Positions 1-24,000 are shown, numbered from the stretch's first letter. The stretch is DNA of 64,000 nt from an uncultured Planctomycetia bacterium (GCA_964354545.1 CAYHAE010000003.1:25019-89018); one strand, 5' to 3'. Notes: generated by a model not told the origin, from the letters alone. Numbers and translations are program-made.

Positions 1-3000
1 AGTCCATCGCCGACCTCTTATTCCTCAACAGGATCCCTCCCGAAGAGCAGCGGTGGGCAGACGTGAACAGGGACGGCGTGATAGATTACTGGGACTATAA
101 CGTCCTCGAGAGGGCGTACGCGATACTCGCGGGCACCACAGGGGATATCAACAGCGACCTTACGGTAGATGCGCAGGATGCTGACATCATCAACGACCTC
201 GCTATCATGCTCAGAGAGGGCGATATCAACGGGGATGGCGTACGCGACGTGGAAGACGAGGTGATCATCTCGCGGGCGATGGGATCCATCCGCACGAAGG
301 TCCTCGCGAAAGACTATTCAACGAGGGGCGCCGCGTTCACCCAGGACGAGGATACTATGTACACAAAGTATACCGAGGGCGTCTCCGGCTATTCTCTCAC
401 CTATGCGTTCGACGTGCCTACCGCAGGATATTACGACATCGGCCTCACGGGAAGGGCCCAGGAGTTCATGACGATACCTGAGGGCGGGAACTACGAGGTC
501 GAGGTGAAGGTGGATGGGACGAGCAAGGGCACTATTACATTGCTCGGGAGCGCGTTCAAGTATAACGAGGGGCTCTTGAAGAAGGTCTATCTCACGAAGG
601 GACAGAAGCAGATAGAGTTTATCTGGAAGAACACCGGGTACGTGACCTACGACCTCGACAAGGACGGCATAAGGTATGAAAACCAAGACCATACGCACCT
701 CGATATCGAAGAGAAGATACCGACGACGTTCCAGGTGAAGGATGTCTTCGTCAAGACGTACACCTTCAATGAGGAAGCCGACCTCAATCGGGACAACAAA
801 GTGGACAGTGCTGACCTGGCTGAATTCAGGGAGGCCCAGGTCTTCTTCGCGCAGTTCCAGAGGTCGGACGTGAACGGCGACGGCATCGTCGATGCGAACG
901 ACGCGCTCGCCTTCCAGATGGCGCCTGCCACGTCGAACACCATCGCCAACGGAGTTCTCAGGGCGAACGGGTTCGAGTACTTCGTCCACTACAATAGAGA
1001 CAACCAAACCTACACGTTCACCGACAGCACATCCACGGACTATTCTACGACGCCTGAGTCCAACATCGTGAGACTCGCCGACGGGAAGCCCTACATTGTC
1101 CTCGGACCGGATCCGGACGGCGAGGTGCGGCTCGTCGAGAAGTTCGCCGCTGATGTGACGAACGACGGTGTCATCGACAGCGTGGATTGGACGGTCGTCG
1201 CGAACGGCGTGATAAATCCTGCGATACGAAAGGAAGCGATCGATTACGTATCGAAGGGCTCGGGGTGGGTCGTGGATGGGAGAGCGCTGAAGGGCTCGGG
1301 AGACCCGCTCGTCTACTCGTTCTACGTAAAGGGTACAGCCACCTATGAAGTAGGCCTCTTCGTGGCAAATGCGGCCGCCCAACTGCCGGAAGAAGGCCAC
1401 CTCTTCGCCTTCGACGTCTATGTCGACGGAGAAGTCGTGAAGTCAGGGACGATCGAGGTTGTGCCCAACATGACGTATGAGGAAGGTTTCATCACTTTAG
1501 CCCTCGGCGCGGGGACCCACGACATAAAGTTCGTCCTCACCAGCACGGGCGACCAAGTGAAGATACCGGAGGTCTTTGTGAGGACTGCCGACAGGAGAGG
1601 AGACCTCAATGGTGACCACTTCGTGGATCTTGCAGACCTCGATATCTTCAAATCCGAGAGGGCGATCTCTTCGTACGTCTATCCCGTAGACCTCGAGCTC
1701 GACGGTGGAGGGCACAAAGAGTACTACCTTGTAAGGAACTTTGACGGCACCTTTGTAATACGGGACAATGCACAAGTCTACCCTGTTGACTGGACCGGGA
1801 AGCTCGTGACGATCGATGGGAACAAGTATCTCGTGGCAGGCCCAGACGGGAACGGCATCACGAAGCTTGTGAAGTACAACTCCGCAGACCTCAACAGGGA
1901 CGGAGAGGTCGATTATCGCGATGCGAAGATCTTCAGGGACGCGTTCGTGAATCCGAAGACCCACCTCGTTAGCGGGTCGACGGTGCTCGCGAGGAACACT
2001 CCGTATGAATTCGACCTCGAGCTGCCCTACGAAGGCGAGTATTACGTCGGACTGTCCGCGAAGGGGCTCGGGTCGGGAGCAGGGAACTTCGATGTCGCGG
2101 TCTACGTCGACGGCGCGCTCTACGGGTATATCACGATACCGGTCAACAACCTCGATTACGTGGACCGGGCGCTGAAGCTCCGCCTCAATCAAGGCTCTCA
2201 CCACGTGCGGTTGATAAACATCTCCACGGGCAGCGCGGGCTCGATAGACGCGAGCGACATCTACCTGTCGTCAGTCGGCGCGGACTTGAATATCGACGGT
2301 ACTCTGAACGGGTCCGATGTCGAGCTCTTCAAGGCCCAGCTCGCCTCCACGAGCGCCACCCACCTCGTCACGCTGCAGGATGCGGCCCAGACCAAGTACT
2401 ACGTGCTCGATAACTTTGACGGCACATACACCCTCGTGGATCAGAACGGCGTGCCATACCAGAGCGATCCGGAGACGAACATGGTCCAGGTGGCAGACGG
2501 CAAGAAGTACAAGATCGTGAGGACGGCGCTCGGCGAGATACGCCTCGTCAATTACCTCCTCCAAGACGTCAACAAGGACGGGGTGGTGAACGAGGACGAC
2601 CTCGTCTACATCCGCACACACATGCAGTTCCAGTCAGTGAGGCACGACGCCTCTGACTTCGCGGCGAGGTCGAGCAGCGATTGGCAATACGCCGCGGACG
2701 CAGACGGGAAATCTCTCATCAATACGAGCGGCGCGGGATCCGTCGATTATACCTTCACTATCGAGAATGACGGGATCTACGACTTCGGCGCCCTTGCCAA
2801 GGATATCTCAGGCTTCGGCGACATCCCCGCGGATTACCACTTTACCTTCAGCGTGATAGTAGACCCGACAGGGGCAAATCTCACCGCCAAGGACATGAGG
2901 GTACCTTATAGCAACACGTCTATGGCGACGGCCACCACAAGGCTCCACCTCACTAAAGGCACGCACACGGTCAGTATACAGTGGACCAACAGGGATGAGT

Positions 3001-6000
3001 CGAGGGTAGCCGCTCACTATGCGTCCCTCAAGCTCGAGGGCGTCTACTTGAGAGACGTCCGTCTCGATCCGTTCTGCGACCTGAACGGTGACATGGTCGT
3101 CGACAGGCTTGACCTCATCCAGTGGCAGCTGAACAATCCTAAGGAAGCCGATTCCCAGAAGGTCCCGGTGGGGAGCGACGCGTACTTTGTGATGAAGCAC
3201 TTCGACGGCACGTATACCTTCTGGGATTCCAATGCGCTTCCGTCTCTCCAGTCGTATGAATCGAGCCTCGATGGCAAGGCCGTGACGCTCAAGGGACAAG
3301 ACTATATCATAAAACCGATCGACGCGAGCGGCAAGGTCTCCCTCACGAAACACATCGCCTCCGATGCGAACTGGGACGGATTCGTAGATTACGGTGACAG
3401 GGCCCTCGTAGAAGACAGCATGAAGTTCTACTCGGTGGGACTCAAAGGCACGGATGCGATCGAAGGGTACTCGGGCTTTGGCATCCCCGGTCAGTCGAAG
3501 TGGCTCATAATGCCGGATGGCGCAGTCGTAGCCCTCGAGAACACCTCTATAAGCTATAAGATCGAAACGGCGGACGAGACTATAGACTATACTCTCGGAT
3601 TCTTCCTTAAAGATATGGTCGAGCAATCCCTGCCAGGATACAGGTTCGAGGTCGATGTCTCCGTTAGCGGACAAAGTACGAAGACGATTCGCATTCCTCA
3701 TTCGACCGAACTGAAGGAAGTAAAGCTCAACGTCGGGAAGCTTGACGCAGGCACGCACACCGTCACTTTCTCGTGGAAGAACGATGCCGAATCCGGTAAA
3801 AAGGCACGCCTGGAACTCCAGGGCCTCTACCTGAGAGATTCCCGCCTCGATGCGCGGGCCGATGTCGATAGCGATGGCGATGTAGACGTCCGCGATTGGA
3901 CGCTATGGCAACAGTTGCGGCCAGATTCTGCCGATATGAGAGACGTGCTCATCACGAAGCCGGATAGAACGACCGAGACCTGGGCCGTTCGGCTCAACTT
4001 CGATGGGACCTTCACCCTCATCGCGCCTGACGGAAAGTTCTACACGACGACCAAGGATTCCAGGCTCGTGACGGTAGGCGAGGCGAAGGCGAGCGCCACC
4101 CAGCCTGCGAACATCGTGCTCATAGGCGCGAAGGCATATGAGGCAAGGGATGTGGCCGGATGGATCAAGCTTTTCGAGAGAGAAGAGATACTGAGCGAGG
4201 TGAAGGACGGTGAGCATACCATCCAGATGGCGAACAGCACCTATTTTGTATCCCGTTCCGGTCCCAACTATATTTTCACCGAAGACGCGGACATTGACCC
4301 GAAAGTCTACACGAGTGTGGGGAATACGCTCGAGGATGTGCTCGTCGGGAGCGACTACGTGACCTATACGATACAGGAAGACAGCTTGAGCCAGGGGATC
4401 CTCCTGTCGAGGGATTTCGAGGCGAGCACGTCGACAGGCCCGATGGCGATACGGTTGGATACCACAGACTATACGATCTCCACGCTCGGCGAGTGGTACG
4501 TATTCAAGTCGGCGAGCGCCGAATATTACAGCCAGCGGTATGTGAACGCGAAAGCCGCGCTCGCGACCGAGGGCACTACCTATGAGGTAATGGTGAATGC
4601 CGCGACCGGAGCGGTCGCCTTAAAGGAAGCCCTTAAAGCAGACACCGATCTCGATGGTGCGATCACGTCGGACGACGGCTCATACATCGCTACAAACGCG
4701 AGACCGTTCCAGGCAAAGAGGATAGCGGTCGAGTACGCCACGAAGGGTACGGGATGGGAAGTGGCCAGAGACGGCATGTCGATGTTCGTAAGACAGAAGG
4801 ATGCGCCGAGCGCCATGACATATAATTTTGGTCAGGCTTCGAAGGGCAGATATACACTCGAGGTCTTTGTGAAGAACGGCTCGCTCGAGGCGCTCCCGAA
4901 AGGCTATGCGTACAAGATATACGCGACCGCGAGCAACGGCGTTGACATTGGTGAGATCGAGGTGGAGGCGACCAACGACGCCTATTCCCGAGGCCTTGCT
5001 ACCTTCGACTCGGACCAGGAATTCCAGAGCATCACCCTGAGATGGGATAACCCTGAAATGGTCGTTGACGAGCTCGCCGCCTTAGAGCTCGGGTCTGTCG
5101 CGCTCAGGAGCGCCGAGGTCGACGCCCGGTGCGACACAAACGGCGACGGCATCGTCGATTCCGATGACATGGTCGAATGGCAGAAGCGCGCCCCGCAAGA
5201 GAGCGTCATGACCTCTCTCGTTATAGGGCCGACTACCTACTACATTGAGAAGGTGATGGCCGATACGCCTTCCTATACCTTCTATAATAGCCTCTCGCAG
5301 AAGGTCGCGACGAGCTACTCCGACGGCATGTTCGTCCAGCTCGGAGGGAAAGAGTATATCATAAGGGAAGACTTCGCGACCGGCGCGCTCACACTGGAAG
5401 AGCATAATCCTATCGATGCGAACCTCGATGGGTTCGTGACGGCCTATGACCAGATGTACGTCGAGATCAACAGCCTCCTGGCCTCTGGGCGCTACGAAGG
5501 CATCGACTATGCCTCGATAGCGGGAGATGCGTGGACCACCGCAGCCGACGGTTCGACGATGGTCACCGAAAAAGACGGCGGTGACGGTACGATCAACTAT
5601 ACGTTCAACACATACGCAGAAGGAACGTACGATGTGGAGGTCACCATACTTAATCCAACGGCCCTCGATCTGAATAACTACACGTACCGAGTAAAGCTCA
5701 GTAGCGAGGCCGGGCTTCTGGGCACTTACATGATCAGGTCACCTGCTGCCGGCCAGACGGCGAAAGCGCTCTTGAAGGGGGTGCCGATGGGAGCCGGAGC
5801 TAATAATTTGACACTCGAGTGGGAGAACAGCGAAGAGTCGGGAGGCCTCGCGAAACTCGGCATAGTCGCTCTCTCCGTGAGAGACTCGCGGCAGGATATC
5901 CTGTGCGACATGACAGGAGATGGGGTTGTGAACGAGAAGGACCTCATCGCATGGGAGGACAGCGCTCCGAGAGAGCTCGATATGAGAAAAGTGGTGCTCA

Positions 6001-9000
6001 GTGTCGACGGCGCGAATAAGGACCTCTTCGTGAAGACGTATCCGGACGGCTCCTACCTTGTCTACAACGACCAGGCACAGCCGACGCGGAGCGTCGGGAA
6101 TATCGTTGAACTCTTCAGCAAGAAGTACATCATCCAGGAGAACGTCGATGGGACCGTTGGGATGAAGGAGAAGCCGACCGAGGATGTGAACGCGGACGGC
6201 ATCGTCGACGGCTCTGACCTCGATGCGTTGAAAGCGTCCATGGCGCTCTCGTCCATGAGGATCACGCCTGTCTACAGCACCGAGGTGGGGGTAGAGTGGA
6301 CTGACGTGAAGGTAGCGAGATCAGGATACTATTCGCTCGGCATGCGTGTCCAGGGGACGAGCGCAACTGCGCCATTCGATAAGTTCAATATCCTCGTCAA
6401 GGTCGACGGAGATGCGGAGGGGAGCTTATTAGTAGACTACGACTACCAGAAAGAGCAGTGCGGGGAGACGTTCATATATCTCTCGGCAGGGACGACCCAT
6501 ACCATAACCGTGAAGGTCAACAACAAGGCACCCGGCATTGAGGATGATGCGAAGATAGACGTAAAGAGCGTCTACCTGCGCGATGCCTCGATCGAACCGT
6601 ACGCGGACCTCAATGGCGATTCGATCGTGGACAGGGCCGACCTCATCGCGTGGCACAATGCGGTCCCGGACGAGGCGCTCGCATGGAAACTCTCCATGGA
6701 AGTGCTTGGAGTACCCAAGACTTACTACCTCAAGGCCTATGCTGACGGAACCTGGGCAGTGTACGACACTGCGCTTGTGTCCTTGCCAGTCAACGGTTCC
6801 CTCGTCACCATAGACACCAGAGACTATATAATCCTGAAGGATGCCCAAGGCGCGCCGATGCTCAAAGAGCACCTCATCCAGGACGTGAATTTCGACGGGG
6901 CGGTGAATGCGACAGACGCGGAGCTGATAAAAGCCGGATTGGGGACAAAGCTGGGTGACGCGGGCTTCAATACTAACCTCGACCTCACTAAGGACAACGA
7001 GGTCAACGGCGATGACCTCAAGAAGTTCCAGGAACTCGTCCCCTCATCGCAGGACATCCTGAAGACCACACTCACGAGGAGCGGACTCCTCGACGTGTAT
7101 CTCTTGAAGAATCCGGACGGCACGTATACTTTGACCGATGGATATGTCCTGTTCGGGCCCACCGATTCCAAGAACAGGGTTACTATGGACGGGAAGGTCT
7201 ATGAGGTGGTGGCAGCACAGGATGGGACGACCATAATCCAAGAGGTGATGAAGGCGGATCTGAACGGCGACAACTTAGTAAATGCGAGCGACGACCTCAT
7301 CATCAATAGCGCCATCGGTTCTTTCGCAATACCGGTTAAGGCGCCGAATCAATTCCACGCGAAGGACGGTTTCGCGGTCTCGGACAAGCCGTCGGAGACA
7401 TCGCTCCACTCCACCGGAGGGGTCGCCAATTACACCCTCGACTATGAATATAATATAGAAGGCACAGGGACTTACAATATAGGGTTGTACGCGAGGGGGA
7501 GAGTCCCGCGCGACTACGGAGCCTACCTCTTCGAGGTCTATATCGATGGACGGACACTGCCCTCAGGTGAATTCGAGGTCCGCGCCGACGACCTGGAATC
7601 TCAGAGAGGAATAGTCAAGATCCGCCTCACGAACGGCGAACACACGATACGGTTCAAGTGGAAGAACCCGAACGCCTCCGTCGAGATCACCGGGGTCATA
7701 GTGGAAGACGAGAAGTATGATGTGAGGGCGGACCTCAATAACGACGGCAGGGTAAACTCCGGCGACCTCGATATCTACACACCGCTTAGAAATGCGCAGA
7801 CGGTAGGCGCGACGTACACGACGGAGAGCGGCATCCACATATCCATAGGCGGGACCCTCTATTCTGTTACGGAAGCGGGGAACGAATTCACCTTTACAGA
7901 CCTGGCGAGCGTCCCTCGCACCACGGTCCAGAAGAAGATCGCCTTCGGGCCTAAGAGCTATATGGTGACGAAAGATGCGGCGAACAACATCGTATTATAC
8001 GAAACCCAAAATACCGGCAATGCGACGAGCGACAGAACGATCTTCATAAAAGGAAACGTCTATACCGTGACCGAGCCTACGCTCGGAAATTACACGTTCA
8101 GCGGTACGCCGCCCGCGACCGTCTCAGGCAGCGAGGTCATCGTGAGCGGCACCACCTATCTCATACAGGAAGTCGAGGAGACCATAGTCCTGAAGGACAA
8201 GCTTGACCCCGGGACCCAAGTAACCGGTACAAGGAATATCACCATCGATGGATATCTCTATACCGTTGGTGAGCCTACCGCGGGGAACTACACCCTTACG
8301 AGAGTGGGGACCACCGCGCCCATACCTACCGTCGACAATGCCGCGGGAACAGTGACGCTGGGCGCGGCCACATACGACATAGTCACGGTAGACCCTGAAC
8401 GGCACATCGAACTGCTGCGAAGGACCGATGCGGCGCGGGAGAAGGCCGGCAGGTTCATGAATGTCCAGGGCGAGCTCTACAGGATAGAAAAGGCGGGCGC
8501 GGAACACGTATTCTCGAAGATCACCGGCACCTACACCACCACGAGCATAAGCCAAGAAGTAGATATCGCAGGGGTCCGCTACAGCGTGTACGTGGATTCC
8601 AAAGGCTATGTGAGCGTGCGGGAGATGCGTGATGCCGGCACCGAGAGCGCGTACTCGGACATCGTGATCGACGGCATTGCTTATCGTGTGAGCGGTACGG
8701 TGGGCAACTATTCCCTCGCGAGCCTCAAATCAGGCGTCCCTGATCCAGTGGTGAACAATCCTGCCAAGACGGTGACCGTGGGCAGCATAGTCTACTCGAT
8801 AGTGCCATCGAGCATTGACGGGAAGATCATGCTCATCCCGACCATGACAAAGTACGACGCGTCTGGTGACCGCATCATGACGATCGACGGCATAGGGCAC
8901 CTTGTCTCCAAGACCGGCGAGGACTGGAGCCTCACAAAGCAGAGCACGGGCGGGCTGCCTGCCATTGTGGACAACGTGCAGGATATCGTCACCGTGGGCA

Positions 9001-12000
9001 CCAAGCTCTATGCGATGAGCGAGGTAGAAGGAAAGCTTGTTCTCACAGAGGTGAGCGTGCACGGGAAAGAGGACGAGGAGGGGGTCGTTGATAAGATAAA
9101 CAAGTACGTCTGGATCAACGATGTCGTCTATAAGGTAGTTGCCGCGTTCAACGGAGATACGCATACCTATGACTTTGACTTCATCGCAGTGCAGGGGACG
9201 TCTCAGGTGAGCGAGATAGATAATATCAATAAGACGGTCACCATCAACGGCAAGAAATACCAGGTCACCAGGCTCGATTCGGGTATAATGATCGAACTCT
9301 CCCCTGTTGACAGGGAATCGACGGCGCTTGCGAAGAAGGTCGTGGAGATGGACGGCCTGTTGTATGAGATAGGCGGCACGACCGGTGCCTGGACCGTCAC
9401 AAAGATAAGCCAAGCCGCAGGGTCTACGGTCACGGTGAATAACCAGGATAATACGATATCCTTTGGGACACGGGTCTTCCTCGTCTCCCTCGACCCCATC
9501 AATAATGCCGCCACTCTCAGGCTCAAGCCTCAAGAGAGCACCCAGCTCTATAACCAGATCGTGGAATTGGACGGCACCACGTACAAGATCACGAGGAGAG
9601 ATCTGGGCTATGAGTTCGTAAAGGATGGGGCGTCTCCTGTGCAGGGTACCTTTACCACCGTCTATTTAGATAATACCATCTACGACATATCCCTGGACCC
9701 TGTCACGAAGGACTTACGGGTGACAAGGAAGCTCATCGTCGGGTCTCCTCTCGGCAGCGGCGTCATCCTCGAGAATATGACCTATACCGTTGACCGGAGA
9801 GAGGACGGCACGCTCCTCTTCTCCAATACCCTCACCCAGGAGTCGTACGAAAGCGAGAAGCGCGGGAAGTTCGTCCAGATAGAAGGCAGGGTCTTCGAGA
9901 TATCACGGGATATCCAGGACAGGATCTCTCTGCGGGAGATCCTGAAACCCGACGTGAACGACGACGGATTCGTGGACTCCCAGGATGCAATGGTCATCGA
10001 TGTGAATATCACGAGGCAGGCCTACATGAACAAGTCCGACATCGATGCGAACAGCGTGATAGATTTCAACGATTACGACAACTTCTTGGAGATCCTGAGG
10101 CTAAGGGACTTAGGTTATATCGGAAGCCCCGCAGACCTCCAGCGCCTGAGGAGGATCACGGATTACGCGTACAATACCTACCTCCAGAACAAGGCCCTCG
10201 AATTCGATGAGAGAAAGAATACGAAGTGGTCGGGAGGGGCAACTCCTATGGGAGAATTCGGCTCGCAGACCGGGTCTATGATGAACAACGGGTACATCGA
10301 AGAGGGCGAGGTCGAGGAGTTCAGGCGCGCCTATGCGGCGATAGGCAAGTACCTCTACGACTTCACCGATGACAAGGTGATAGACGAACAGGACGCCGAG
10401 TGGCTCAAGAAACTGTCCGAGATCATGGACGTTTATTACAGATATAACGACATGGGGTTCGACCTCGTTGCGGCGCGCGACAAGGCTGACGTGAACGACG
10501 TCGACGGCGATGGACAGGCGGAGGGCGACGGGGTGGTCGACGATGCCGACAAGGCGCTCATCCTCTACAGCTGGGCCAACTACTCCAAGTTCAACTTCAA
10601 TCCTGAGATCGATAGAGCGGGAATAGTCGATTCGGTCGATGTCGACTTTGTGCGGCGGATGTACGAGCTCATATGGCCGGGCGCCTATGAGACAAGGCCG
10701 TCGACGTTATGGCCGGAAGGTCCTGTTATGGAAGGGAGACGCCACGCCGCCCGCGCGGACGTGAAGACAGACTTCACGCAGTCCGTGGATACGGTCTGGT
10801 CAAAGACGCAGGACGCGTCTCTTACCTATGCCTTTACCACGGATACGCCGGGCGATTACTATGTCGGGCTCTCGGCGAAGAGCTATCAGAACGGCTTCCT
10901 GCCCGATAAGTTCCAGTACGTGGTTGCCGTGTACATCGACGGCGTCTACAGGACCACGGTACGCGTGAACGGGACGACCGGGAACAGGTACCTTGAGGGC
11001 TCGCGCCTCGTCACCCTTGAGAAAGGCGTGCACACGGTGCGGTTCGAGTTCAAGAACCTGTCGGACGTCATATCGGTCCACGTGGGAGAGGTCTTCCTCA
11101 ACAAGACCGGCTTCTCGCTCACCAAGTTCGATGTGAACGAGGACGGGAGGATAGGCGTTGACGATGCGGACACGCTGGAAGATATCATTCGGCTCTATAA
11201 CGTGAACGGCCTCAGCGGGGTAGACATCGACGACGTGGACCTCATACGGTCATATGCGGGGAAGAGGTTCGGAGAGCCGGAGTACCGTCCCGAGATGGAC
11301 CTGAACGGCGACGGCAAGATCTCGAACGAGGATGCCGATATCCTCGCGGCGACGATCGTCAGGCACGACAACAATAACGACGGCGTGCTCAATTCGTCCT
11401 TCATCAACGACCAGAAAAATGACGTCGATAGAGTAAGGGATGTGGGGTACTTCTACACAAATGAGCTCATGATGCAGAAGGACTCTTCCGGAAGATACCT
11501 GCTCGACTTCAACGACGACGGGAAGGTCGATATCCTCGACAGGGCGTACTACGCCGAGGCGATGAGCGCGGTCGATCTCGACGGCGACAGGAAGATCACG
11601 AGGGGCGATCTCGACGTGATGGATAAGATCATCGCGCTCGTCAATCTGGCCGTCAATCCCGACGAGGAGCGTCGCGCTGATATCACGGGAGACACGACCT
11701 ATACCGTGGGAGACGGGACCTCGCATAAAGTCCAGGGTCCGAGGCTCGGCACCATAAAGGTGAAGGGCTCAGATTTCGACATCGTGATAGACAACATCAC
11801 AGGTGAGGCGATGCTCGCGGAGCACCATGCGGAATCAGAGCCTCTCGTGGGCAAGAACGTTGTCTATCGCGGCCAGTTCTATAACGTGACAAAGGACTCC
11901 GCGGGCAGGTTCATCGTGAACGACGGGTCGAGGTCGTTCGTAAGCGAACCGGGAATAGACGAAGTCACGATCGACGGGAACAGGGTGGCGGTAACGGAAG

Positions 12001-15000
12001 ATCCGATCACGGGCGCTGTCACCATCGCCGACGTGCCCGAGAAGAGCACGCTCCTCTCTATCGCGACCGTCGAGGTTGACGGGGTGAAGTACTTTGTGAC
12101 AAAGGACAGAGAGCGGGAGAGGTACCTGTTCTCTGACGGAGTCCGCACGGCAGGGTCCAACCCGTACACGAAGAAGGTGAAGCTCAACGGCATCACCTAT
12201 ACCATTGCCGAGGTCGCGGATAAGCTCTCGTTGTCGAGAACACCGCCGCTCGCCATTGCGCCCGTAGCCAGCAAAGTGACTGTCGGCGAGTCGGAATACA
12301 GCTTCACAAGGATTGCCGCCTATGATTATAAGTTCACGAATACCGCCACCGGAAAAGCCTATACGAGCGACTCCCTGTCCCATGCGGTGGTGATAGACGG
12401 CGTCACCTTTGAGATTGTTGAGGCCGCAGGGGCACTCTCGTCCCTTAAGGAGATGTCCGCTACGAAGACCATTGCGGACGGCATCGTTTCGGTCGACGGG
12501 CTCGAATACTTCTATAAGGCAAATCCGGACGGGACCTATACCCTCGCGAGAGGGACGACCGGGATCTTGAGCGACGAACGGGGAGGCTCCATCGTCATCA
12601 ACGGATACACGTACGATATCACAAAGAGCGCGGACAGCTGCCACATCGTCCTGTCGGCGAGCGTTTCCAGGTCGAGCCACGTGGCCGATGAGGTCATCGA
12701 GCTCGTCCAGGACTACCAGGATATCAAGACCGCGGGGAGGCGCTACAGGGTCGTGAAGAATGAGGACGGAGAGACCCACACGTTTATCGATGGAACTCGG
12801 GAATATAAGTCGAAGATAGACGGTCCCGACGAGGTCATCGACTTCTCCTTTGGGAAGTTCAAAGTGACAGAGGATGGGAGCGGAGACGTGACACTGCAGG
12901 AGACGATACCGGCCGATGTCGATCCGTCGTTCGCGTACACCTCTCAGAAGGTGGCCGACCAGGTGATATGCGTGAACGGGACCGAGTATGAGGTGAAGAA
13001 TAACGGCGCCGGGTCCTATACGGTCACGAGGGGGATTTATTCGACGACCGGAACGACCGCGACCTCCATCACGGTGGACGACAAGGCGTACAGCATTGCC
13101 GAGACGACTGAGGGGATCGAGCTTACGCTCATCACGAAGCCGGTAGTCAATGACACTGCCCTCCAGGTGATACGGTCGAGCGGAGATGATTATAAGGTCA
13201 CCTATGACACCGCGTACCACTTCAATAAGGTAACCGACGGCACGCCGCTCAGCACCGCGGGGTACACTATTGTGACCCTGAACGCCCCTGCTCACCGGGT
13301 ACAGCTCTCCAAGACGTACGGCACGGCAGAGACCGTCACCGTGGACCAGGAGATCGACCAGTCCGTCGTGCTAGGGAAGAGGATCTATGACGTGGTGAAG
13401 AAGGCCGACAATTCCTACGAGCTCTTCGAGAACGGACTTATGAAGGCGAAAGGCACAGAGACGCTCGCGGTGGACGGCGTCACATACGCGATAAAGGATA
13501 ATCCGCGCGAAAAAGGAAAGATCGACCTTGTGGAAGTAGTTCAGGACACATCGGCACCCATCGCTCTACAGGCGGTGAGGCTGAACGGGAGGCTCTACAC
13601 CGTGACAAGGGATCCGGATACAGGAGACTACTTCGTATCAGACGGGAAGGCCACTTATAAGAGCCACAGGCTCAAGGAATCCACGGTCTACCAGCTCACC
13701 GCTCTCGCGGCGACCAACTTTATCCATATCGACGGCATGACGTTCGCCGTCACCGATGACGAGGTGACAAAAGGCTACAAATTAGTGCAGCTCTACGATA
13801 AGTCCACCATGCTCTCATTCAGGCAGGAGTTCAAGGTGAATGAGACCACTTATGCCTGGTGGTACGATTACAACGAGAAGCTCTACGTATTTCTGGATAA
13901 GGCGACCGGATGGACCTACTCAAGCGACAAACCTCTGGCGACGGTGAGGCTGGAGGGCGGGATACTCTACGATATCACCGTCGACCACACGACCAAAGAG
14001 CTGAGCCTCGCGGAGCGCCGGAGCGGCCAGGCAGCGGTCAACGGCATCGTGGAATTGGCCGGGAAGACCTATAAGATCGTGAAGAGGGGCCTCAAGACGT
14101 ATGATTTCATCCTCACCGTGGCGGGCATTGAGACGCAGACCGTCTACCACAGCTACCTCGCCGCAGGCGCGCACAGCGTCACTATCACGGGCGACCCGTC
14201 GAGGACCTATTCGATAACCAAAGAGACGGTGAATGACGTTGACTATGTCACGCTGCAGGAAGTGACGATGTTCACGTCGAACGACACCAAAGACAGCATT
14301 CAGCTTGGCGGAAAGACATACTCTATCACGCAGGTGGGCGACGTGTACAAGTTCCAGGATACCGTCTTTCTATTGGTCTACATGAGCGATCCGGACGGCA
14401 CCCTGAGGATAGGCAAGACCACCTATATGATCACGACGAAACCCAATAGTCTCGAGCTCGCCAAACAATGTGTGTCCATACCAAAGGAGACGCCCATCGA
14501 GGTTTCGGGCGTCTACTACATCGTCACCTATGACTATCTCACCGGAAAGTATGCGTTCAGCGATGGGTTCAACCGATATGAATCTGTCGGCGACGACAGG
14601 AAGCTGGTGACCATCGGGACGAAGGACTATGCGATCTCGAGAAACTCCGCGACCAACGTCATCACGCTCACGGAAGACACGAAAGGCAGGCCGATCCAGT
14701 TCACCTCGAGAGGCGGGAAGACCGAGGTAACGCTCGACGACGGCATCACCTATTCTCTCCACGCCCGCGCCGACGGCCGATATAGCCTCTCTACGAATCT
14801 GGCTACATACCATTCCGAGAGCCCGGACGCACTTCAGGTCGAAAAGGATACTTACACGATCACGTCCGACGCGAGCGGAGAGCTCATCTTCACGCGGCGT
14901 ATCGTGAGCGTCCCGGTAGAAGGCCAGCTCGTGAAGCTCTACAGCCAGTTCTACTCGGTGAAGCCGGACGGAAACGGCAGGGTGGATGAGAAGGATACGG

Positions 15001-18000
15001 CGCAGCTGGACGACGCCCTCGCAACCTTCGCGGAGTTCGACGTGAGCCAGGACGGCGTCATCGACGAACACGATTTCGATGTGATGGCGCAGAGGATATC
15101 CGGTGATTCAAAGAGCATACGGGAGCTTCAAGGTAAAGGCGCTTCCTTTGAGGACGCATTCCGCAGGATCTTCTCCGATGAGATCTTCTATCAGCAGGAG
15201 CTCGCTGCGGCCGACGCGAATAAGGATGGGTATGTAGATGCCCAGGATGAGACGGTCTATGAGGACCGCCTCGCCACCAATGTGGACCTCGACCTGGGTG
15301 GGCTCGAACTGCGTGAAGCGAAATCCGAAGGCGGGAAGATCACCTTCTATGGAGTCGAATACGATGTGACCTTTAACGGGACGGATACCTATACCCTCAC
15401 CACCGCCTCGCGTCCCGGCGCGACCTACACGGCATGCGTGGGAGACTCCGTCGAGATCGGCGAAGCCCATACGAGCTACAGCGTTTCCAAAGATGTGTCG
15501 GACAACCTCGTCCTCGCCCGGAAGTTCCAATTCACGGGAACGGGCGGCACGATCAGGGTGAACGGTGTCACCTATACGGTGACAGAGCCCAGCGCCGGCA
15601 TATTCAGATTCGATGACGGGAACGGGCATGCGTACACGAGCGCGGATGTAGGACAGCTCAAGAGGGTGAAGATAGGCAACTTCATCTATGAGATCACGGG
15701 GAATATCGCGAGCCTCACCCTCGACGAGAAGTATGCGGACAACAGGGTCAATGGCAAAACGGTCTATATACCTGAGGCTATGAAGCGGGACCTGGTGCGG
15801 CAGCTTATCCTCGATGTGCGGGCAGACATCACGGGGAATGCGGAGAACCCGGACGGCAAGGTCGATAAGAAGGATGCGCTTGCCTTCAGCACCCGTCCCG
15901 TTGACGTGAACGGCGATGGCTTCACGAACGAGCTTGACCTGAACCTCATATGGGATATCGCCGACAGGCAGAAGCTCGAAAGGATCAAGTACGACTTCAA
16001 TATGGACGAGGTGATCGATAATGCCGACATCGTGAAGTACCGGGACGACATCATTCCGCATAGTCCTGTCATAATCGATCTGAACGTCGACGGAAAGATG
16101 GATGCGAAGGACGTCGAATACCTGGAAGCCGTCGTCCTGCCTCAGATCGTGAAGAGGAACCTCGCGATGAGGTTTGACCGCGATTTCAACGGGGTCGCCA
16201 CGAGGGCCGAACTCGCGCCGTTAGAGGATGCCCTCTTGGCAGCGGACTTGAACCGCGATATGCGGGTCAACGAGGCAGACCTCAAGACCTTCGCGGATAT
16301 CGAGTCCCGCTATGCATCGCTCCCGCTGTCGAAGGCCGAGGTCGTCGCAAGCGATATCAATCAAGACGGGATAGTCGACTACAAGGATGCGGCCCTCCTC
16401 GAGGACGCGATCGCTCACCACGTGGATGTGAAAGGCGACGGGGTCGTCGATGACAAGGACGTGACGATCGTGAGGGAGATCGTCACGGGCGGAAAGCCGG
16501 CGAATGCCTACGTGAAGGTCGACCTGCCGCAGTACTACCTGTCCAAAGATGTCGTGAGCAAGGCAGACGTGAACAAGGACGGCGTGGTCGACGGCGAAGA
16601 TTACGACGAGTGGTCCAAGGTCGCGCTCGAGCGGGTAAACCTCGACGTCGCCGACGCCGGAGGGCTCATAAGGATCTACCAGGCAGAAGGCGGCAAACTC
16701 GTGACCAATTATCCGGAATCCTCATTTGCATACCAGCTTACCCTGGAGAAAGAAGGACGATATCAGTTCAACTTCGACGTGAAGGCCGCGGAGTTCGCAG
16801 CCCTCTCCTTCGACGTGTTCGTCGACGGCATAAAGAGCGGCGAGATGCTGACGGGCGCGGTACCGAGCGCCGCCACGAAGGCCTCCGTTGTCATCGATGT
16901 CCCGAGCGGGGAACACACGATCATGTTTGTCATGCGCTGCCCGAGCTCACGAAGGATCGCTATCGAGCTGGCCAACCTGTCGTACACCGTACCAGTCGAT
17001 CCGAAATACGACGTAAACGGCGACGGGATCTACTCTTATGACGACGGCAGGATTGTCAATGCCTTTGTCGATGCCCAGAAGCTGCTCGAGGAAGCGGATA
17101 TCAACTGGGATGGCGCGGTAGACGACAGGGACCTGGTGCTCCTCGATATGGACAGGAACGGCACCATCGAAGGCGCGGAGACCACCATAGACTATAGTAG
17201 TCAGTTATCAGTGAGGCGGGATGTCACGAGAAACGGCGTGGTAGACCAAAGGGACCTCACCGCCCTCGGCGAAATCCTCGACGCGATCGAATACATCTCG
17301 AGGGCCGACGTGAACAGAGACGGCTTCATCGATGGGAAGGATGAGATCGATATCGCCGAGTCGGTGAGGGACTACCGGGACATCACGGGCGCAGACGGTG
17401 TTGCGGATGAGCGGGATATCGCGACCTTGTGGACAGCAGCGTCGGCGTTCCACACCATCACCTTTGAGGAGGCGATGGGGTCAGACCTCACGGGAGACGG
17501 CATGATAGATGCGCGGGACCTTGCGAAGATAGCCTACTACGCGGACAGCAACCTGCTCTCCACCATGGTCGAAAAGGTAAAGAGCCCGACCTCGAAGTTC
17601 GATGCGAAAGTAGCGGACAAAGACCTCGCAAGAGACGAGATCGTGCGGGCGCTCACGAGCCTCGGAGGCCTCGATGTCCAGAACAGCAAGCTCGTGAGGG
17701 CCACGTCGAGGTATGAAAGGTTCGACCTCCCCGTCGCGCTGAACTGGACAAGCGACGGCACTCAGTGGATGGTGAAAGACGGCGTCTACAGTCAGACCGC
17801 ATCCGGTACGGCTACTCATGTGAGCACCTACGAGTCGGAGGATATGAGCGATTTCAGCGTCGAGGCGGACGTGAGGGTCGACGGCGGATTCTTCGGATCA
17901 GGGTTCATGCCCGAGATGTACCAGACCCGCACCCGGATGGATTCGGGCGGCGCCGGGATCGTATTCAGGATGAAGGATGCGGGTAACTACTATGAGGCAT

Positions 18001-21000
18001 ATCTCAACTCCGCGACGAGGTCGCTCGAGTTCAGAAAGGTCGTCGACGGAGGCGCGCCTATCGTGATGAAGTCCGTGAAGGTCGGGATCGCGGGCGACAG
18101 ATGGTACCGTCTCGGCGTCAAGGCTCGCTCGAGGTTCTTCGAGTTCACGATCGACGGCAAGAAGGTCTTCGATTTCATCAGTACGACCTTCGGTACGGGG
18201 GGAGTCGCGCTTAAGGTCGGTCCGTCCACACGGGCATCGTTCGATAACGTGAGGTTCTCTACGTACAATACCCTCGATCAGATCGCGAGAGACGGGCTGC
18301 TGGACAAGGACCTCGATGGAGATTCCGACATTGATGCGTGGGATTACGGAATACTCAAGGCCCTCAACGTCATGAGCGAGACGGACGTGGACGGGAACGG
18401 GAACGCGGATGTGAATGATAAGCAGCTCCTCGTGGACGTGAGCACGTGCGACTTGAACGGCGACGGGCTCGTGAACGAAGACGATTATACACCTCTCGAC
18501 CTCGATGGCGATACCGATGTTGACGCAGACGACGTGAAGATCGTGGAGACCGCGGCGCATTTAGCGAACATGCCGAAGAGGTTCGACTTTGCGGACATCA
18601 ATAAAGACGGGAGGGTCGATTGGAACGACTATGAGACCGCGGAATCGAGCCTCGCGGCGCAGGTCGATGTGAACGGTGACAGCGCGTTCAACCACCTCGA
18701 CCTCGTCACCATAGACGCGGTCATGAAATATAACGCCCTGCCCATCGCCGAGACGACGCTCGCGCTCGCGGACGTGAACGGCGATGACACTATCGACTCG
18801 AAGGATATCGAAGACCTCACGTTCTCGATCACCTACTACGGAAGGGCCGACGTGAACGGTGACGGCCGGAAGGACTTAAGCGACACGCTCGACCTCGCCA
18901 GGGTCATCCAGAATATCACCAAACCGTACTCGGATCCCGATGCGATCGTGACGTCTTCGGTGAGGGAGAAGGCGGACGTGAACCGCGATACCAAGGTAGA
19001 CCAGGACGATGTGGACGAAGTGAGCTACTGGGTCACGCAGTATATCGCGAATCCCACCGTCACCTCAGCCCTGATCGACGTGCGCACGTACGACTTCGAT
19101 AAAGACGGGAAGCTCTCGGCACAGGACACCGCGATATGCGCGAACATAAAACAGCTCATCGCGCAGGGGAAGTACCTCACGAACGAACAGCTTGCCCGTT
19201 ACGATGTGGACAGGAACGGCATAATCGACGCAGCTGATGCAAAGATGATGGTCGATATCTTCGCATGCCTCAAAGACGTCGACCTTGACGGAACGGTCGG
19301 CCCAGGCGACGTGAGCGCGATCGAGCTCATACTTTACAGAGAGTCCCTCGGAGTCACACGAGAGCAGATCGAGCTTTCGGACATTACGGGAGACGGCTGG
19401 GTGACGAGAGATGACTACACAACGCTTGAGAACGCCCTCAAGACAGCGGACCTGCTCGATGCGAACGGTGACGGGTGGGTGGATGCGAATGAGAAGAAAG
19501 CGCTCGCGGACATCATCACCGCCTTCATGACAGGCAAGATACTCACCAAAGAAGAATACGCGAAGGCAGACTTCAACGGGGATGGAGACATCAATGGTAA
19601 AGATATATCTGAGCTCAACGACCAGCTCCTCGCGCTCTACGAGGCAAGGCTCTCAAAGCAGAAGTGGATGGAGTCGGCCAGGCTGAAGGCCCCGGCACTC
19701 ATCAGGGACGCGATCGACGTGAACGGAGATGGGAAGAGGGACGACACGGATACGGCACGGGTGGACGCCATCGTGCAGTACTATAAGGATGCGCTCAAAG
19801 ACGGCATCACGGAGAAGATGGTCGACGATGCCGATATCAACAGGGATTTCAGGGTCAACGAAGACGACAGGGCGCTCCTCGAGCGGCTCGTTGTGGACAG
19901 CGAGTCAACCGGCGGAATAGAGACGGGGATCCCCTACTACCCCTTCTCGCATAGCCCGCAGGCGCAGGAATATGCCAGGATGCTCGACCTCAACAAAGAC
20001 GGCTTCGTTGACAAAAAGGACGAGATCATCTTCCTGTCGGCATACGAGGGGTTAAAGCCGGAGGTGGGCGAGCTCAGGCAGATGGAGGATTTCGTGAAGT
20101 ACGACTTCAATAGCGATGGGTACGTGGACAAGAAGGACCTGCAGATCATCTACGACGTGATCCTTGGACACGTGGACATCGATGGAGACGCCCTCATAGG
20201 GGACTCGGAGAAGAACGCAAGCACCAATCCTCTTACGGATACGGAGATCCTCAATGAACTCATACAGATAGACAAGAAGTGCGACGAGCTGGGGATAAGC
20301 CTCGCGGCGCTCGACGAAAATGTCGATCCCGAGCACCTCCCCGATGAGGTCAACAGGCTCAGGATCGCTGCGCGGTTCAGCGAGGACCCCCTCGAGAGGA
20401 TCACGCGCACGGCGTACGACAACATGATGATCGCGCTCAACACGAGGGACAATCCTTACTACGACATCGACAACAACGGAAAGTTCGACTATAAGGACGT
20501 CTACCTCCTCGAGGATATCTACGGCGCGATCCAGGACTATGCCTCAGGCTCCACCACAGGCGGGGCGAGGACCGTGCTTCAGCCCATGGAATTCCATATA
20601 CGGGATGTGACGAACAACTTCGAGATCGACAGGCACGACCTCGAGGCGGTCCAGGACGCGAGGAAGAGCCTCATGTCCTTCCGGCTCGACCAGCTCATCA
20701 AGAAAGAGGACGCGTACAGGCTCTACAAGTTCAGAGGACTGAGCGAGGTCATCACCCCGGACGACATCAGGAGGGGCGATTTTGTGCTGAGAACGGGCGA
20801 TGAGGACGGAGCGCTCTACGTGAACGACCATGGTGAGAACGACTCGCAGATCCTCATCTCCAAGATGATCTGGGGCCACTATGATGAAGAGGGCAACCTC
20901 ATCATAGTCCCGGAGTGGGCCCCCGGCGAACAGCGGCTCGTGAGAAGGCCGAGGAAGGGCGAGAAGAAGAGGATCCTCCACGATATGGCGGTCTATCCGG

Positions 21001-24000
21001 GCGAACCGCCAGAAACGCCGCCGCCTACGGATGAGGGCTACGAGAACGTATTCTCGAGCGTCAAGCCGTATATCAATCCGAGCGATATCGACAAGGACGG
21101 GCTGGTGAGCGCCGAAGACCTGTACTTCATACAGAGGGCGATGCGAGAAGTCGGCCTTGGCGAACTTCCTTCCATCCCGAACCTCATCGTCGGGAACATC
21201 GACAGAGACGTTGATATAGAGATCACGGATAAGGATCTGACGAAGATGATCGAGACCATGATGCGGGCGAGGGACGTCGATGGCAACCTCGCGATCGATA
21301 GTAACGACGCGGAGATGGTGAGGGAGATGCAGGACAGGGTCCTGAAGGCGAAGGAGGTTATCGGGAAGATAAACGATATCAAGGCACTGCTTGCCAAGGA
21401 CACGTTCGATGACCTTGATATCGCGTACATGAACGTGCTCCTCGACTACCTCAACATCAATGTAGACGAGTACAAGAGGGCCGGCGGTGTTGACTACGAG
21501 ATCGACAAGATGGCGAAGGTCCTCGAGACCATGTTCGGCGGCATCACCGAGCCTGCCCAGCGGGAAACCGTATTGACGAGCCTCGTCAAGGGATTCGGCG
21601 TAAAAGGCGCCGGCAGGGAGAGGATAATCGGTCCGGCCAAGCCGGTCGAGGTTCCTCAGGCACAATGGGACCTCTTGCTGAGGATCAAGGCGAGCCTCGA
21701 TTTCTCCACGCTGGACAAAGACGGGGACGGCAATGTGACCGACTACGAGATCGCCGCCATGGAGAGTCTCATCGGGACGGTCCTGGACGTCTCCGCGATC
21801 CCTGATGACGAGATGGCAAGGGCCGATATCAACGGAGACGGGATCGTGAACGGGTTCGACCTCGATGCGCTCACCACCGCAGTGACCCACAACGTCGATG
21901 TCAATAACGACACGGTCATAGACTCCCAGGACTACTATGCATGGCTCGAGCTCAAGACGTTCATGAACTACAGGATCCAGCCAGGGGAGCTTGAGCGTGC
22001 GGATGTAGAACTGCTGGAAGAGCCGGACAAGATATTCACCGAGCCGTTCCCATTCGAGAGGTCGGGGACCGTGCAGGGCGGGCTCTACAGGATACTCAAG
22101 AATGCCGAGGGAGAACCGCTGCTCGATGCGGAGAAACAGGTCAGATTCGAGGAGCTCTCGGTGACGACAGAGAACGCACAGGACCTCTTCGCTCTCCAGT
22201 GGGCCATCGACAACATCGACAAGATCGATTTCGACGAAGACGGGACGATCGAGGCCTCTGACCTCAACGCGTACCTCGATACGCTCCTCTTCATAGAAAA
22301 TTCCACCATCCAGCAGCAGATGCTGAGGCGCCATGCCATGGACCTCGTCGACGCCGAAGGCAAGAAGGACGGCGTGGTCAACCAGAAAGACCTCGACAGG
22401 TTCGTCGAGGTGGTGTACACGCAGCATGTCGACGTGGACTCAAACGGCGCGGTCTATGACAGGGACGTGTCGAGGATAAAAGAGATCATCGCCGCCGACC
22501 AGATAAAGGAGAGGTGGACCAAGGAATATCCGGACCTCATCGGAGAGCTCTCGAGGAGGGTCATCAATGTCGACGCGCAGCACTTCTACATCGACTATGA
22601 TCCGGCGACCGTCACCTACATCTTCACGCGGTTCGCGCTGCCCAACGAACCGGGCCTGCCGGCAGGCGAGGAGCCCATCACGAGCGACCCGAGAAGTCAG
22701 ACGGTAATGATAGGGGAGACCCTCTATTACATTACCGAAGAGGCTGTCACGAAGAGAGTAAACCTTTCCGACACCGTCACGCTCTATAAGGAGCAGAAGG
22801 CGCCGAAGGCATACGTGCGCATCGCGGACATAAACGGAGACGGGAACGTCGACTTCCTGGACCAGTACGGCCTCAACGAGGAGCTGCAGAAAGCGAGGGC
22901 GCTGGGACTCCAGAAGATCGACTCGCACTTTGCGGATACGGTAAGGGAAGTGAAGAGCCTCATCGACGCCTGGAAGGCCGTCGTCATAAAGGTCGCAGAG
23001 GTGAGCAGGCCCGTCTATGACCAGGTGGTAGAGGTCGAGGGCCGAAAGCTGGGGGTAGAGGTCGTGCCCGAGGATAACGGTGTCAGATCGTATACGGTAT
23101 ACGACATCGTAAACAATAACAAGGGCTACGTGAGCAGGCGCGACCGCATGACCGGGGACATCACCGTAAAGGTGGGCTCCATAGTCTATCTCGTCATCTA
23201 TGACTCGCTCTCGCACAAGATAAGCCTGCAGAAACTCTACACGAGCTCCATCAAATTAGCCGATAACCTCATCAAGCTGGGAGAGCAACAGTATGAGGTG
23301 CTCGACAACCAGGACGGAACGTTCACGCTGAGGGACGGGGCGATCGTATACGTGAGCCAGAAGAACACAGACCTCATCCTCGTCGGAGATGAGCTCTACA
23401 GGGTCATAAAGAACGAGAATACGGGAGAGATCACCCTCATTAAGAAGGAATCGACGAGGAGTGAGTCGATATCCATTGAGGGAGGCCAGCTCATTGCCCT
23501 CGACGGCGTGCTCTACAAGGCCGACTATGACGCGGGCGAGGGCTTCTTCTTCAACGACGGCGACCACCTCTACGGCACGGTGCCGGGATCGCAGTATATC
23601 GAGATAAAGAACAGGCGGTATAAGATCGCCATGGACCCTGACACTCGCGTCATTCAGCTCACCGAGATCATCCCCGGCGACCTGAACGAGGACGGCATCG
23701 TAGACGCCGCCGATGAGGCGCTGCTGCGCGCATCCTTGACCAAGCAGGCGATAAGCGTCGATGCGAACAGGGATGCCGTGAACTACGTAGAGCTGGACGG
23801 GGTACGGTACGACGTCTATCAGGATCCTGCGACCGGAGAGATCACGCTGAAGGAGAGGAAAGACGTGGGGTCCGGTACGAAGATCTCGGACACCGAATAT
23901 ACCGCAGTCCTCATAGTGGAACCGGGGAGGAGGAGGGCGCAGTGGGTGGGAAGCGTGAAGACCGGGACGCCGAACGTGATCAAGGTCCAGGGCGTGTACT

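Follow-up and report, generated by a model that had tools for sequence, protein, structure and literature searches.

Introduction

The question raised by nucleotides (nt) 313-7750 of a 64,000-nt stretch of DNA from an uncultured Planctomycetia bacterium (GCA_964354545.1 CAYHAE010000003.1:25019-89018; this whole stretch is called the window below) is what kind of protein carries there so many copies of one beta-sandwich module, each followed by a dockerin-like loop, and to which family this module belongs. An earlier note on the same DNA had described fifteen old and divergent copies, nine of them in tandem, and had proposed that they could form a new family of glycan-binding modules. Our analysis indicates that this region is likely to encode a "ladder" of ~2,500 residues belonging to a giant (>21,332 amino acids, aa) secreted or surface protein of the Dockerin type, which would work as an adhesion array stiffened by calcium ions (Ca2+) and multivalent in its binding.

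A single giant reading frame with fifteen copies of one module

Frame +3 was open across the whole window, with 21,332 codons and no stop, and the other five frames contained between 174 and 1140 stops each. Since no stop occurred in frame +3, all the repeats are domains of one giant protein, and the corresponding gene, longer than 64 kilobases (kb), is among the longest bacterial genes known. Pfam domains in this open reading frame (ORF) were Dockerin_1, TSP3_bac, ILEI, 3keto-disac_hyd (DUF1080), EF-hand_7, and DUF4214. That the entire window is one reading frame had escaped the earlier note, as had a Ca2+ loop lying upstream of most of the modules (13 of 15).

3..63998, + strand: single ORF, an inner part of a giant gene extending past both ends of the window

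The nine tandem modules, of ~105-155 aa each, occupied aa 98-2569 (nt 294-7709) in frame 3. A hidden Markov model (HMM) built from these nine copies alone recovered six dispersed copies (nt 10731-11105, 16671-16985, 31383-31853, 36123-36518, 37386-37802, and 38220-39149) at the places already noted, with independent E-values (iE) from 1.4e-7 to 6e-23; the two halves of the copy that is split obtained values of ~1e-6 and ~4e-6. Iteration of the HMM added no copy and no further candidate appeared between iE 1e-6 and 0.16, thus giving exactly 15 copies in the window, the number previously proposed. On the protein read in reverse and on five locally shuffled versions of it, the HMM reached at most 0.7 bits, as compared with 13-139 bits for the real copies. 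Pairwise identity among copies ranged from 14 to 35% (median 24%), which lowers the 25-35% estimated before, and Tandem Repeats Finder (TRF) detected no tandem repeats at the DNA level in nt 1-12000, thus indicating that the copies are old. They are genuine repeats, old and diverged.

The hallmark motifs described for the module were present in the MAFFT consensus (YxF, GxYxxGL, VxVDG, GxHxIxFxWxN, and VxxR), and the conserved columns fell in strands, turn glycines, and Ca2+ loops. The V(Y/F)(L/V)RD junction that had been presented as a fixed motif turned out to be loose: copies end in sequences such as VFVKT, IYLSS, VALRS, VIVED, or VFLNK, which correspond just to a loosely kept hydrophobic last beta strand. 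A loop of the DxNxDGxVD type after the module was found for every copy, as had been claimed.

Most modules lie between two calcium loops

The downstream loop, present in 15 of 15 copies and placed 4-9 residues past the last strand, is a 12-residue segment of the form D-x-N/D/T-x-D-x-x-hydrophobic-x-x-x-D/E, with Asp invariant at positions 1, 5, and 12 among 14 aligned units. A second Ca2+ loop was clear upstream of 13 copies, ~19-41 residues before the module; it was degenerate in one copy and missing in another. The resulting composite units were as follows.

222..851, + strand: unit 1, with loop 222-257, CBM6/35-like module 294-758, loop 780-815 and helix
1152..1673, + strand: unit 2, with loop 1152-1187, module 1224-1586, loop 1602-1637
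1887..2354, + strand: unit 3, with loop 1887-1922, module 1944-2273, loop 2283-2318
2559..3158, + strand: unit 4, the unit modelled with AlphaFold, with loop 2565-2600, module 2637-3056, loop 3078-3113
3363..3932, + strand: unit 5, with loop 3363-3398, module 3438-3839, loop 3861-3896
4641..5204, + strand: unit 6, with loop 4641-4676, module 4713-5111, loop 5133-5168
5415..5978, + strand: unit 7, with loop 5415-5450, module 5487-5885, loop 5907-5942
6183..6677, + strand: unit 8, with loop 6183-6218, module 6240-6584, loop 6606-6641
7257..7802, + strand: unit 9, with loop 7257-7292, module 7329-7709, loop 7731-7766
10605..11201, + strand: unit 10, with degenerate upstream loop EIDRAGIVDSVD 10605-10640, module 10731-11105 (iE 7.8e-17), loop 11130-11165
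16566..17081, + strand: unit 11, with loop 16566-16601, module 16671-16985 (iE 1.4e-7), loop 17010-17045
31383..31949, + strand: unit 12, no upstream loop, with module 31383-31853 (iE 5.1e-15), downstream loop 31878-31913
36015..36611, + strand: unit 13, with loop 36015-36050, module 36123-36518 (iE 4.2e-19), loop 36540-36575
37305..37895, + strand: unit 14, with loop 37305-37340, module 37386-37802 (iE 6.1e-23), loop 37824-37859
38097..39236, + strand: unit 15, with loop 38097-38132, module 38220-39149 split by an insertion (half-matches 38220-38435 and 38898-39149, iE 1.3e-6 and 4.2e-6), loop 39165-39200

The tandem region has a period of ~260 aa, in which an F-hand loop with its helix, a barrel, a second F-hand loop with its helix, and a spacer of ~60 aa follow one another. 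Distances were near constant from loop to module (~24 aa) and from module to loop (~8 aa). The two loops around a module lay at 130-360 aa from each other, and at 132-181 aa in all but one of the 13 units whose upstream loop is clear; for those around a spacer the distance was 91-95 aa, linker lengths being equally constant on the barrel side and on the spacer side. When the module or the spacer was deleted and the two F-hand halves were spliced, near full-length Dockerin_1 matches were obtained, with the same score in both cases (mean ~23 bits each).

An AlphaFold2 model of the loop-module-loop segment aa 853-1052 obtained a predicted local distance difference test (pLDDT) of 91.6 and a predicted template modelling score (pTM) of 0.86, both above those of the module alone (81.8 and 0.79, respectively, for a model made on the 15-row alignment). 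The flanking F-hand segments reached pLDDT values of 90-97, and helices were predicted at residues 12-21 and 183-199. The model indicates that loop, module, and loop would form one compact body.

The spacers that alternate with the units consist of two beta hairpins with the motif "...YY(L/V)xxxxDGTYTFxD...VT(L/I)xGxxYxI..." and belong to a repeat family represented at least 85 times in the ORF.

954..7244, + strand: nine beta-hairpin spacers of ~60 aa, alternating with the units
954-1139, 1683-1874, 2361-2552, 3156-3350, 4443-4628, + strand: spacers 1-5
5211-5402, 5985-6170, 6696-6869, 7065-7244, + strand: spacers 6-9

The family extends over nt ~954-51383 (aa 318-17127), often in long tandem runs, for example at aa 3891-5240, 10800-11590, 13081-13746, and 14304-14820, and no Pfam family was found for it. 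The "antiparallel beta-helix" tubes that a 2023 preprint predicted for giant proteins of this type are probably built from it.

Copy 15 carries an insertion of ~155 aa (nt ~38433-38897, aa 12811-12965) in the loop after the GL strand. This insertion resembles another beta domain (...KVYWNRE...HTYTLDF...ITELRIDP...), nested within a barrel that is itself nested, and was not assigned by Pfam, the best match being Shr-like_HID at E 0.0098.

The module as a divergent CBM6/CBM35 member

Below the Pfam thresholds, CBM_6, a family of carbohydrate-binding modules (CBM), was matched by 3 of the 15 copies (best E 0.0047) and CBM_35 by one (E 0.045), along with single weak matches to Malectin and CBM60; nothing was found with NCBIfam in aa 1-5000. 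The 15-copy profile matched in the PDB the CBM35 structure 2vzp (E 0.008, aligned over positions 31-113 of 127), the CBM6 structures 2cdo and 2cdp (E 0.012-0.014), and 8zvk (E 1e-5). An exhaustive profile search among 1.84 billion representative proteins yielded 1,985 proteins at E<=1e-3, of which 383 reached E<=1e-10. Four of these relatives (P0006, P0018, P0019, and P0022) matched the 15-copy profile at E 1e-34 to 1e-53, and their matched regions were recognized as Pfam CBM_6 at 36-64 bits, over a cut-off of 28.9. Alignment of the 15 copies with seven CBM_6-positive modules by hhalign gave 99.4% probability and E 9.5e-22 along 113 columns.

The fold pointed in the same direction. The model of the module alone was all-beta, with 11 strands, and the top Foldseek matches in the PDB were CBM6 (2cdp, with a target template modelling score, TM, of 0.76; 8j3x; 5fui) and CBM35 structures (2w46, 2vzp, 2w1w, and the CITase 3wnk), all of them at probability 1.0; target TM values ranged from 0.65 to 0.76, and 124-155 matches were obtained at E<=1e-3 over the two models. 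Based on the profile, profile-profile, and fold matches, the module is placed in the CBM6/CBM35 superfamily as a divergent branch, and it is neither a new fold nor an orphan family.

Other searches were negative. The profile of the CBM_6-positive relatives gave no PDB match at E<=0.01; word-index homologue searches with the 15-module alignment and with aa 845-2200 retrieved 8,000 candidates each, none of them significant; no relative of a 1,356-aa segment was found among GTDB representatives; and an exact 42-mer of the window had no match in the genome and metagenome contig collections. The weak Malectin similarity (one copy, E 0.0016-0.0098; the module of unit 9 at E 0.0098, under the Pfam threshold) was set aside as a broader galactose-binding-like resemblance, and readings of the module as PKD/Ig or discoidin were also rejected.

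The profile and structure searches suggested in the earlier note were thus productive, with ~2,000 related proteins and CBM6/CBM35 folds at the highest Foldseek probability. The note was right in seeing copies of one shared, CBM-like beta-sandwich fold in a fixed unit with a dockerin-type Ca2+ loop. Its "unassigned" label is correct insofar as Pfam assigned no copy; the suggestion of a new family does not stand in view of the CBM6/CBM35 homology.

Bare modules and a colinear giant in other genomes

Among 41 related proteins, 89 of 114 module matches had no flanking Ca2+ loop. The relatives with bare modules were ordinary secreted multi-domain proteins containing PKD, CHB_HEX_C_1, and Fn3.

The best match (P0001) was a protein of 2,506 aa with eight copies of the module, encoded on a 55-kb scaffold (L001; ENA ERZ28564302, scaffold_1434) whose GC content (56.4%) is similar to that of the window. 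Its gene is flanked on the same strand by genes for proteins of 7,601 and 4,868 aa (L001 1-27521), from which it is separated by a single stop codon followed by a 26-nt gap on the upstream side and by Ns on the downstream side; the three genes are evidently fragments of one giant gene. Scaffold and window protein are colinear, with an identity of 24-29%, over the module array (window aa 65-2311) and over the following aa 3079-5957, thus reflecting an architecture kept over a large sequence distance.

Proposed function of the array and alternative explanations

In the adhesion array that we favor, each repeat of the ladder comprises (i) a dockerin-type F-hand Ca2+ loop with its helix, (ii) a beta-jelly-roll of 105-155 aa, divergent member of CBM6/CBM35, (iii) a second F-hand loop with its helix, 4-9 residues past the last strand of the module, and (iv) a beta-hairpin spacer of ~60 aa. 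The two dockerin-like halves would clamp the N- and C-termini of the barrel into one compact unit, and six more such units are scattered downstream of the ladder. Ca2+ would stiffen the chain, barrels with copy-specific loops could provide multivalent and possibly multi-specific binding to glycans of host or prey cell envelopes, and the protein may act as an adhesion organ. Calcium dependence, extracellular location, and glycan binding are presumed in this proposal, sugar binding by the modules being suggested by their homology.

Several results weigh against this proposal. None of the 15 copies reached the Pfam gathering threshold of CBM_6 (28.9 bits) or CBM_35 (28 bits). The ligand residues of the loop site in CBM6 and CBM35 are an aromatic pair plus an Asn; in the copies studied here the inter-strand loops hold no conserved residue and vary in sequence and length, only one of the 15 copies keeps the "YDAN" that comes before the last strand and never varies in CBM_6-positive relatives, and copy 15 alone retains the Trp of "WLEY". 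With no conserved residue in the loops and "YDAN" lost, a canonical binding site is not evident. The equal scores of the spliced sequences do not tell whether the F-hand halves pair around the barrel or around the spacer. Lastly, no Cohesin domain was detected by Pfam in all 21,332 aa.

The main rival to the adhesion array, which we regard as possible and clearly less probable, is that the modules are structural rungs, in which the CBM6/CBM35 fold has been kept and sugar binding lost, so that they, along with Ca2+ loops and spacers, would serve only as rigid extenders pushing other, functional parts of the protein away from the cell. It would fit with a conservation limited to core strands and Ca2+ loops and with the loss of "YDAN" and of the "WLEY" Trp, and the clamped unit has a pTM high enough to suggest rigidity. 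However, hypervariable loops on a conserved scaffold are equally expected from diversified binding specificities, the relatives that share secreted proteins with CHB_HEX_C_1, PKD, and Fn3 occur where a CBM function is plausible, and the protein also carries DUF1080 and ILEI, two domains related to glycans.

Rather tentatively, the adhesion array could be taken further: the CBM6-like barrel nested between dockerin half-motifs might be a genuine composite domain class, in which Ca2+ would lock the barrels as rigid rungs and the hypervariable loops of each copy would bind an envelope glycan of their own, the whole forming a Ca2+-switchable adhesion organ of broad specificity in an ultra-small episymbiotic or predatory bacterium. 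If so, this would be the first case in which dockerin halves clamp their own protein instead of binding a cohesin.

It seems unlikely that the split dockerins bind cohesins, as in a cellulosome-like scaffold that recruits partners and uses the barrels as spacers or substrate anchors. Dockerin_1 matches are certainly many and significant across the ORF (84-170 bits per block of 5,000 aa), which holds ~100 F-hand loops in all and also contiguous canonical dockerins (for example, aa 2293-2339); the spliced halves gave near full-length matches, and helices flanking comparable barrels have been reported to superpose on the dockerin of a cohesin-dockerin complex (bioRxiv 10.1101/2023.11.21.568195). 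Against this stand the lack of Cohesin matches mentioned above and the 105-310-aa barrel at the position of the dockerin linker, which may occlude the cohesin-binding face. To our knowledge, moreover, non-cellulosomal dockerin-like modules are widespread with no known cohesin partners.

The idea first proposed, that of a new family or fold, CBM-like or lectin-like, devoted to multivalent glycan binding, is very improbable. The absence of Pfam or NCBIfam assignments and the empty word-index searches would agree with it, but profile, profile-profile, and fold comparisons all led to CBM6/CBM35, bridging homologues pass the Pfam CBM_6 threshold, and the composite has already been described (bioRxiv 10.1101/2023.11.21.568195). 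Practically no weight is given to a compositional or chance similarity of motifs in a repetitive sequence rich in Asp, Gly, and Thr: the protein is indeed biased (D 9.6%, T 8.8%, G 8.6%), but the HMM was close to silent on reversed and shuffled sequences, the models were confident, and ~2,000 homologues exist elsewhere.

Giants of this kind rank among the longest genes known and are almost wholly unannotated, and the definition at the sequence level of their blocks (the divergent CBM6 subfamily, the split dockerin halves, and the hairpin spacer of 60 aa, repeated at least 85 times) makes annotation possible. Small expressible constructs are available for tests of binding to prey or host cell walls, such as aa 853-1052 (pLDDT 92). 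The nested CBM-in-dockerin unit, if confirmed experimentally, would be of interest to structural biologists and cellulosome engineers.

Other regions of the open reading frame

Three other Pfam domains were located in the ORF, in addition to bacterial TSP3 repeats (TSP3_bac, 43-69 bits per block of 5,000 aa).

17745-18254, + strand: 3keto-disac_hyd (DUF1080), aa 5915-6084, E 4.9e-7
39768-40040, + strand: ILEI, aa 13256-13346, E 1.8e-17
60255-60446, + strand: DUF4214, aa 20085-20148, E 8e-10

TSP3 repeats were found at nt ~44574-45233 (aa 14858-15077), with sub-threshold NCBIfam similarity to MtsD and CglD; this stretch is the part of the protein closest to the colinear scaffold, with 41-54% identity to L001 4848-5672. 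Farther downstream, nt 51384-56550 (aa 17128-18850) contain ~12 repeats of ~105-150 aa with the motif "TYDxxGN … GYY", reminiscent of YD/Rhs by eye only: no RHS family was matched there by Pfam at E<=0.01, and a word-index search with aa 17128-18866 gave 8,000 candidates, none of them significant. A low-complexity segment with seven GGAYPGG-type repeats (nt 56565-56715, aa 18855-18905) lies after these YD-like repeats and ahead of 15 clustered F-hand loops (aa 19061-19733). From nt 59202 to 63998 (aa 19734-21332) the protein shifts abruptly to an Ala/Leu/Glu-rich, apparently all-helical composition, with no Ca2+ loops or beta modules, and the DUF4214 match falls inside this region.

Frame 3 of the minus strand has just 174 stops and contains ORFs, such as 41562-43454, that measure up to 631 aa. 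This open antisense frame is most likely a by-product of the codon bias of the sense frame and does not speak for genes.

Comparison with known systems

Canonical CBM6/CBM35 modules (Pfam PF03422 and PF16990; structures 2cdp, 8j3x, 5fui, 2vzp, and 2w46) share with the module described here a beta-jelly-roll of ~130 aa and strand motifs around "Y-x-F ... G-x-Y" and "L-x-x-G-x-H/N-x-I". In contrast to them, the copies of the window are sub-threshold in Pfam, lack the "YDAN" of their nearest CBM_6-positive relatives, and are nested between F-hand halves instead of being attached to a glycoside hydrolase. The units resemble type I dockerins (PF00404) in having two Ca2+ loops of 12 residues, each leading into a helix and carrying D/N at positions 1, 3, and 5 and D/E at 12. 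In the type I dockerin, however, both segments are contiguous (~30 residues apart), whereas in the units they are split by a barrel of 105-310 aa or by a spacer of ~75 aa, and, unlike the cellulosomal setting, no cohesin was detected in the window.

Giant repeat adhesins rigidified by Ca2+, such as MpIBP from Marinomonas and SiiE from Salmonella, bind the ion at domain junctions, which stiffens a long extracellular chain; they are built of BIg-type domains, are exported by type I secretion, and attach through ligand-binding modules. With these adhesins the window protein would share a way of working, as an analogy only; no kinship of sequence or fold with them was found, no search aimed at it having been made.

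The closest counterparts are the "Dockerin-type giant proteins" of Omnitrophota, which have numerous Dockerin/EF-hand and TSP3 repeats along with DUF1080, ILEI, and other domains (bioRxiv 10.1101/2023.11.21.568195). One of them, CAILPI010000004_73, contains an unannotated run of ~2,500 aa of repeating beta barrels nearest to CBM35, flanked by alpha helices that are jointly dockerin-like and superpose on the dockerin of a cohesin-dockerin complex, and antiparallel beta-helix regions were also reported in these giants (West-Roberts et al., bioRxiv 10.1101/2023.11.21.568195, Fig. 6 for the barrels). The cluster with dockerin plus TSP3 architecture was recovered in further Omnitrophota genomes in a 2026 preprint; for split dockerins, no further paper was found in the literature beyond that of West-Roberts et al. 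Like these proteins, the window has a giant ORF with many Dockerin/EF-hand repeats, bacterial TSP3, DUF1080, and ILEI, a barrel repeat of ~2,500 aa whose nearest structures are CBM35/CBM6 and which is flanked by dockerin-type helices, and repeat regions based on beta hairpins elsewhere in the protein; GNAT and F5_F8_type_C, named in the Omnitrophota paper, were not seen in the window. In addition, giants of this type are described as having a C-terminal membrane anchor with SecA-like or C39 domains and, upstream of the gene, a T2SS-like locus. By this comparison, the repeats of the window agree with the published description point for point, and the architecture by itself would suggest an Omnitrophota origin.

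The union of a sandwich with a Ca2+ loop, which the earlier note considered unusual, is genuinely so, but it is not new, the composite unit having been reported in silico in 2023 for the Omnitrophota giants (bioRxiv 10.1101/2023.11.21.568195). To that description the present analysis adds the proof at the sequence level of CBM6 homology, the number and positions of the copies, the alternating 60-aa spacer, the loss of "YDAN", and the occurrence of the bare module, with no dockerin halves, in ordinary proteins.

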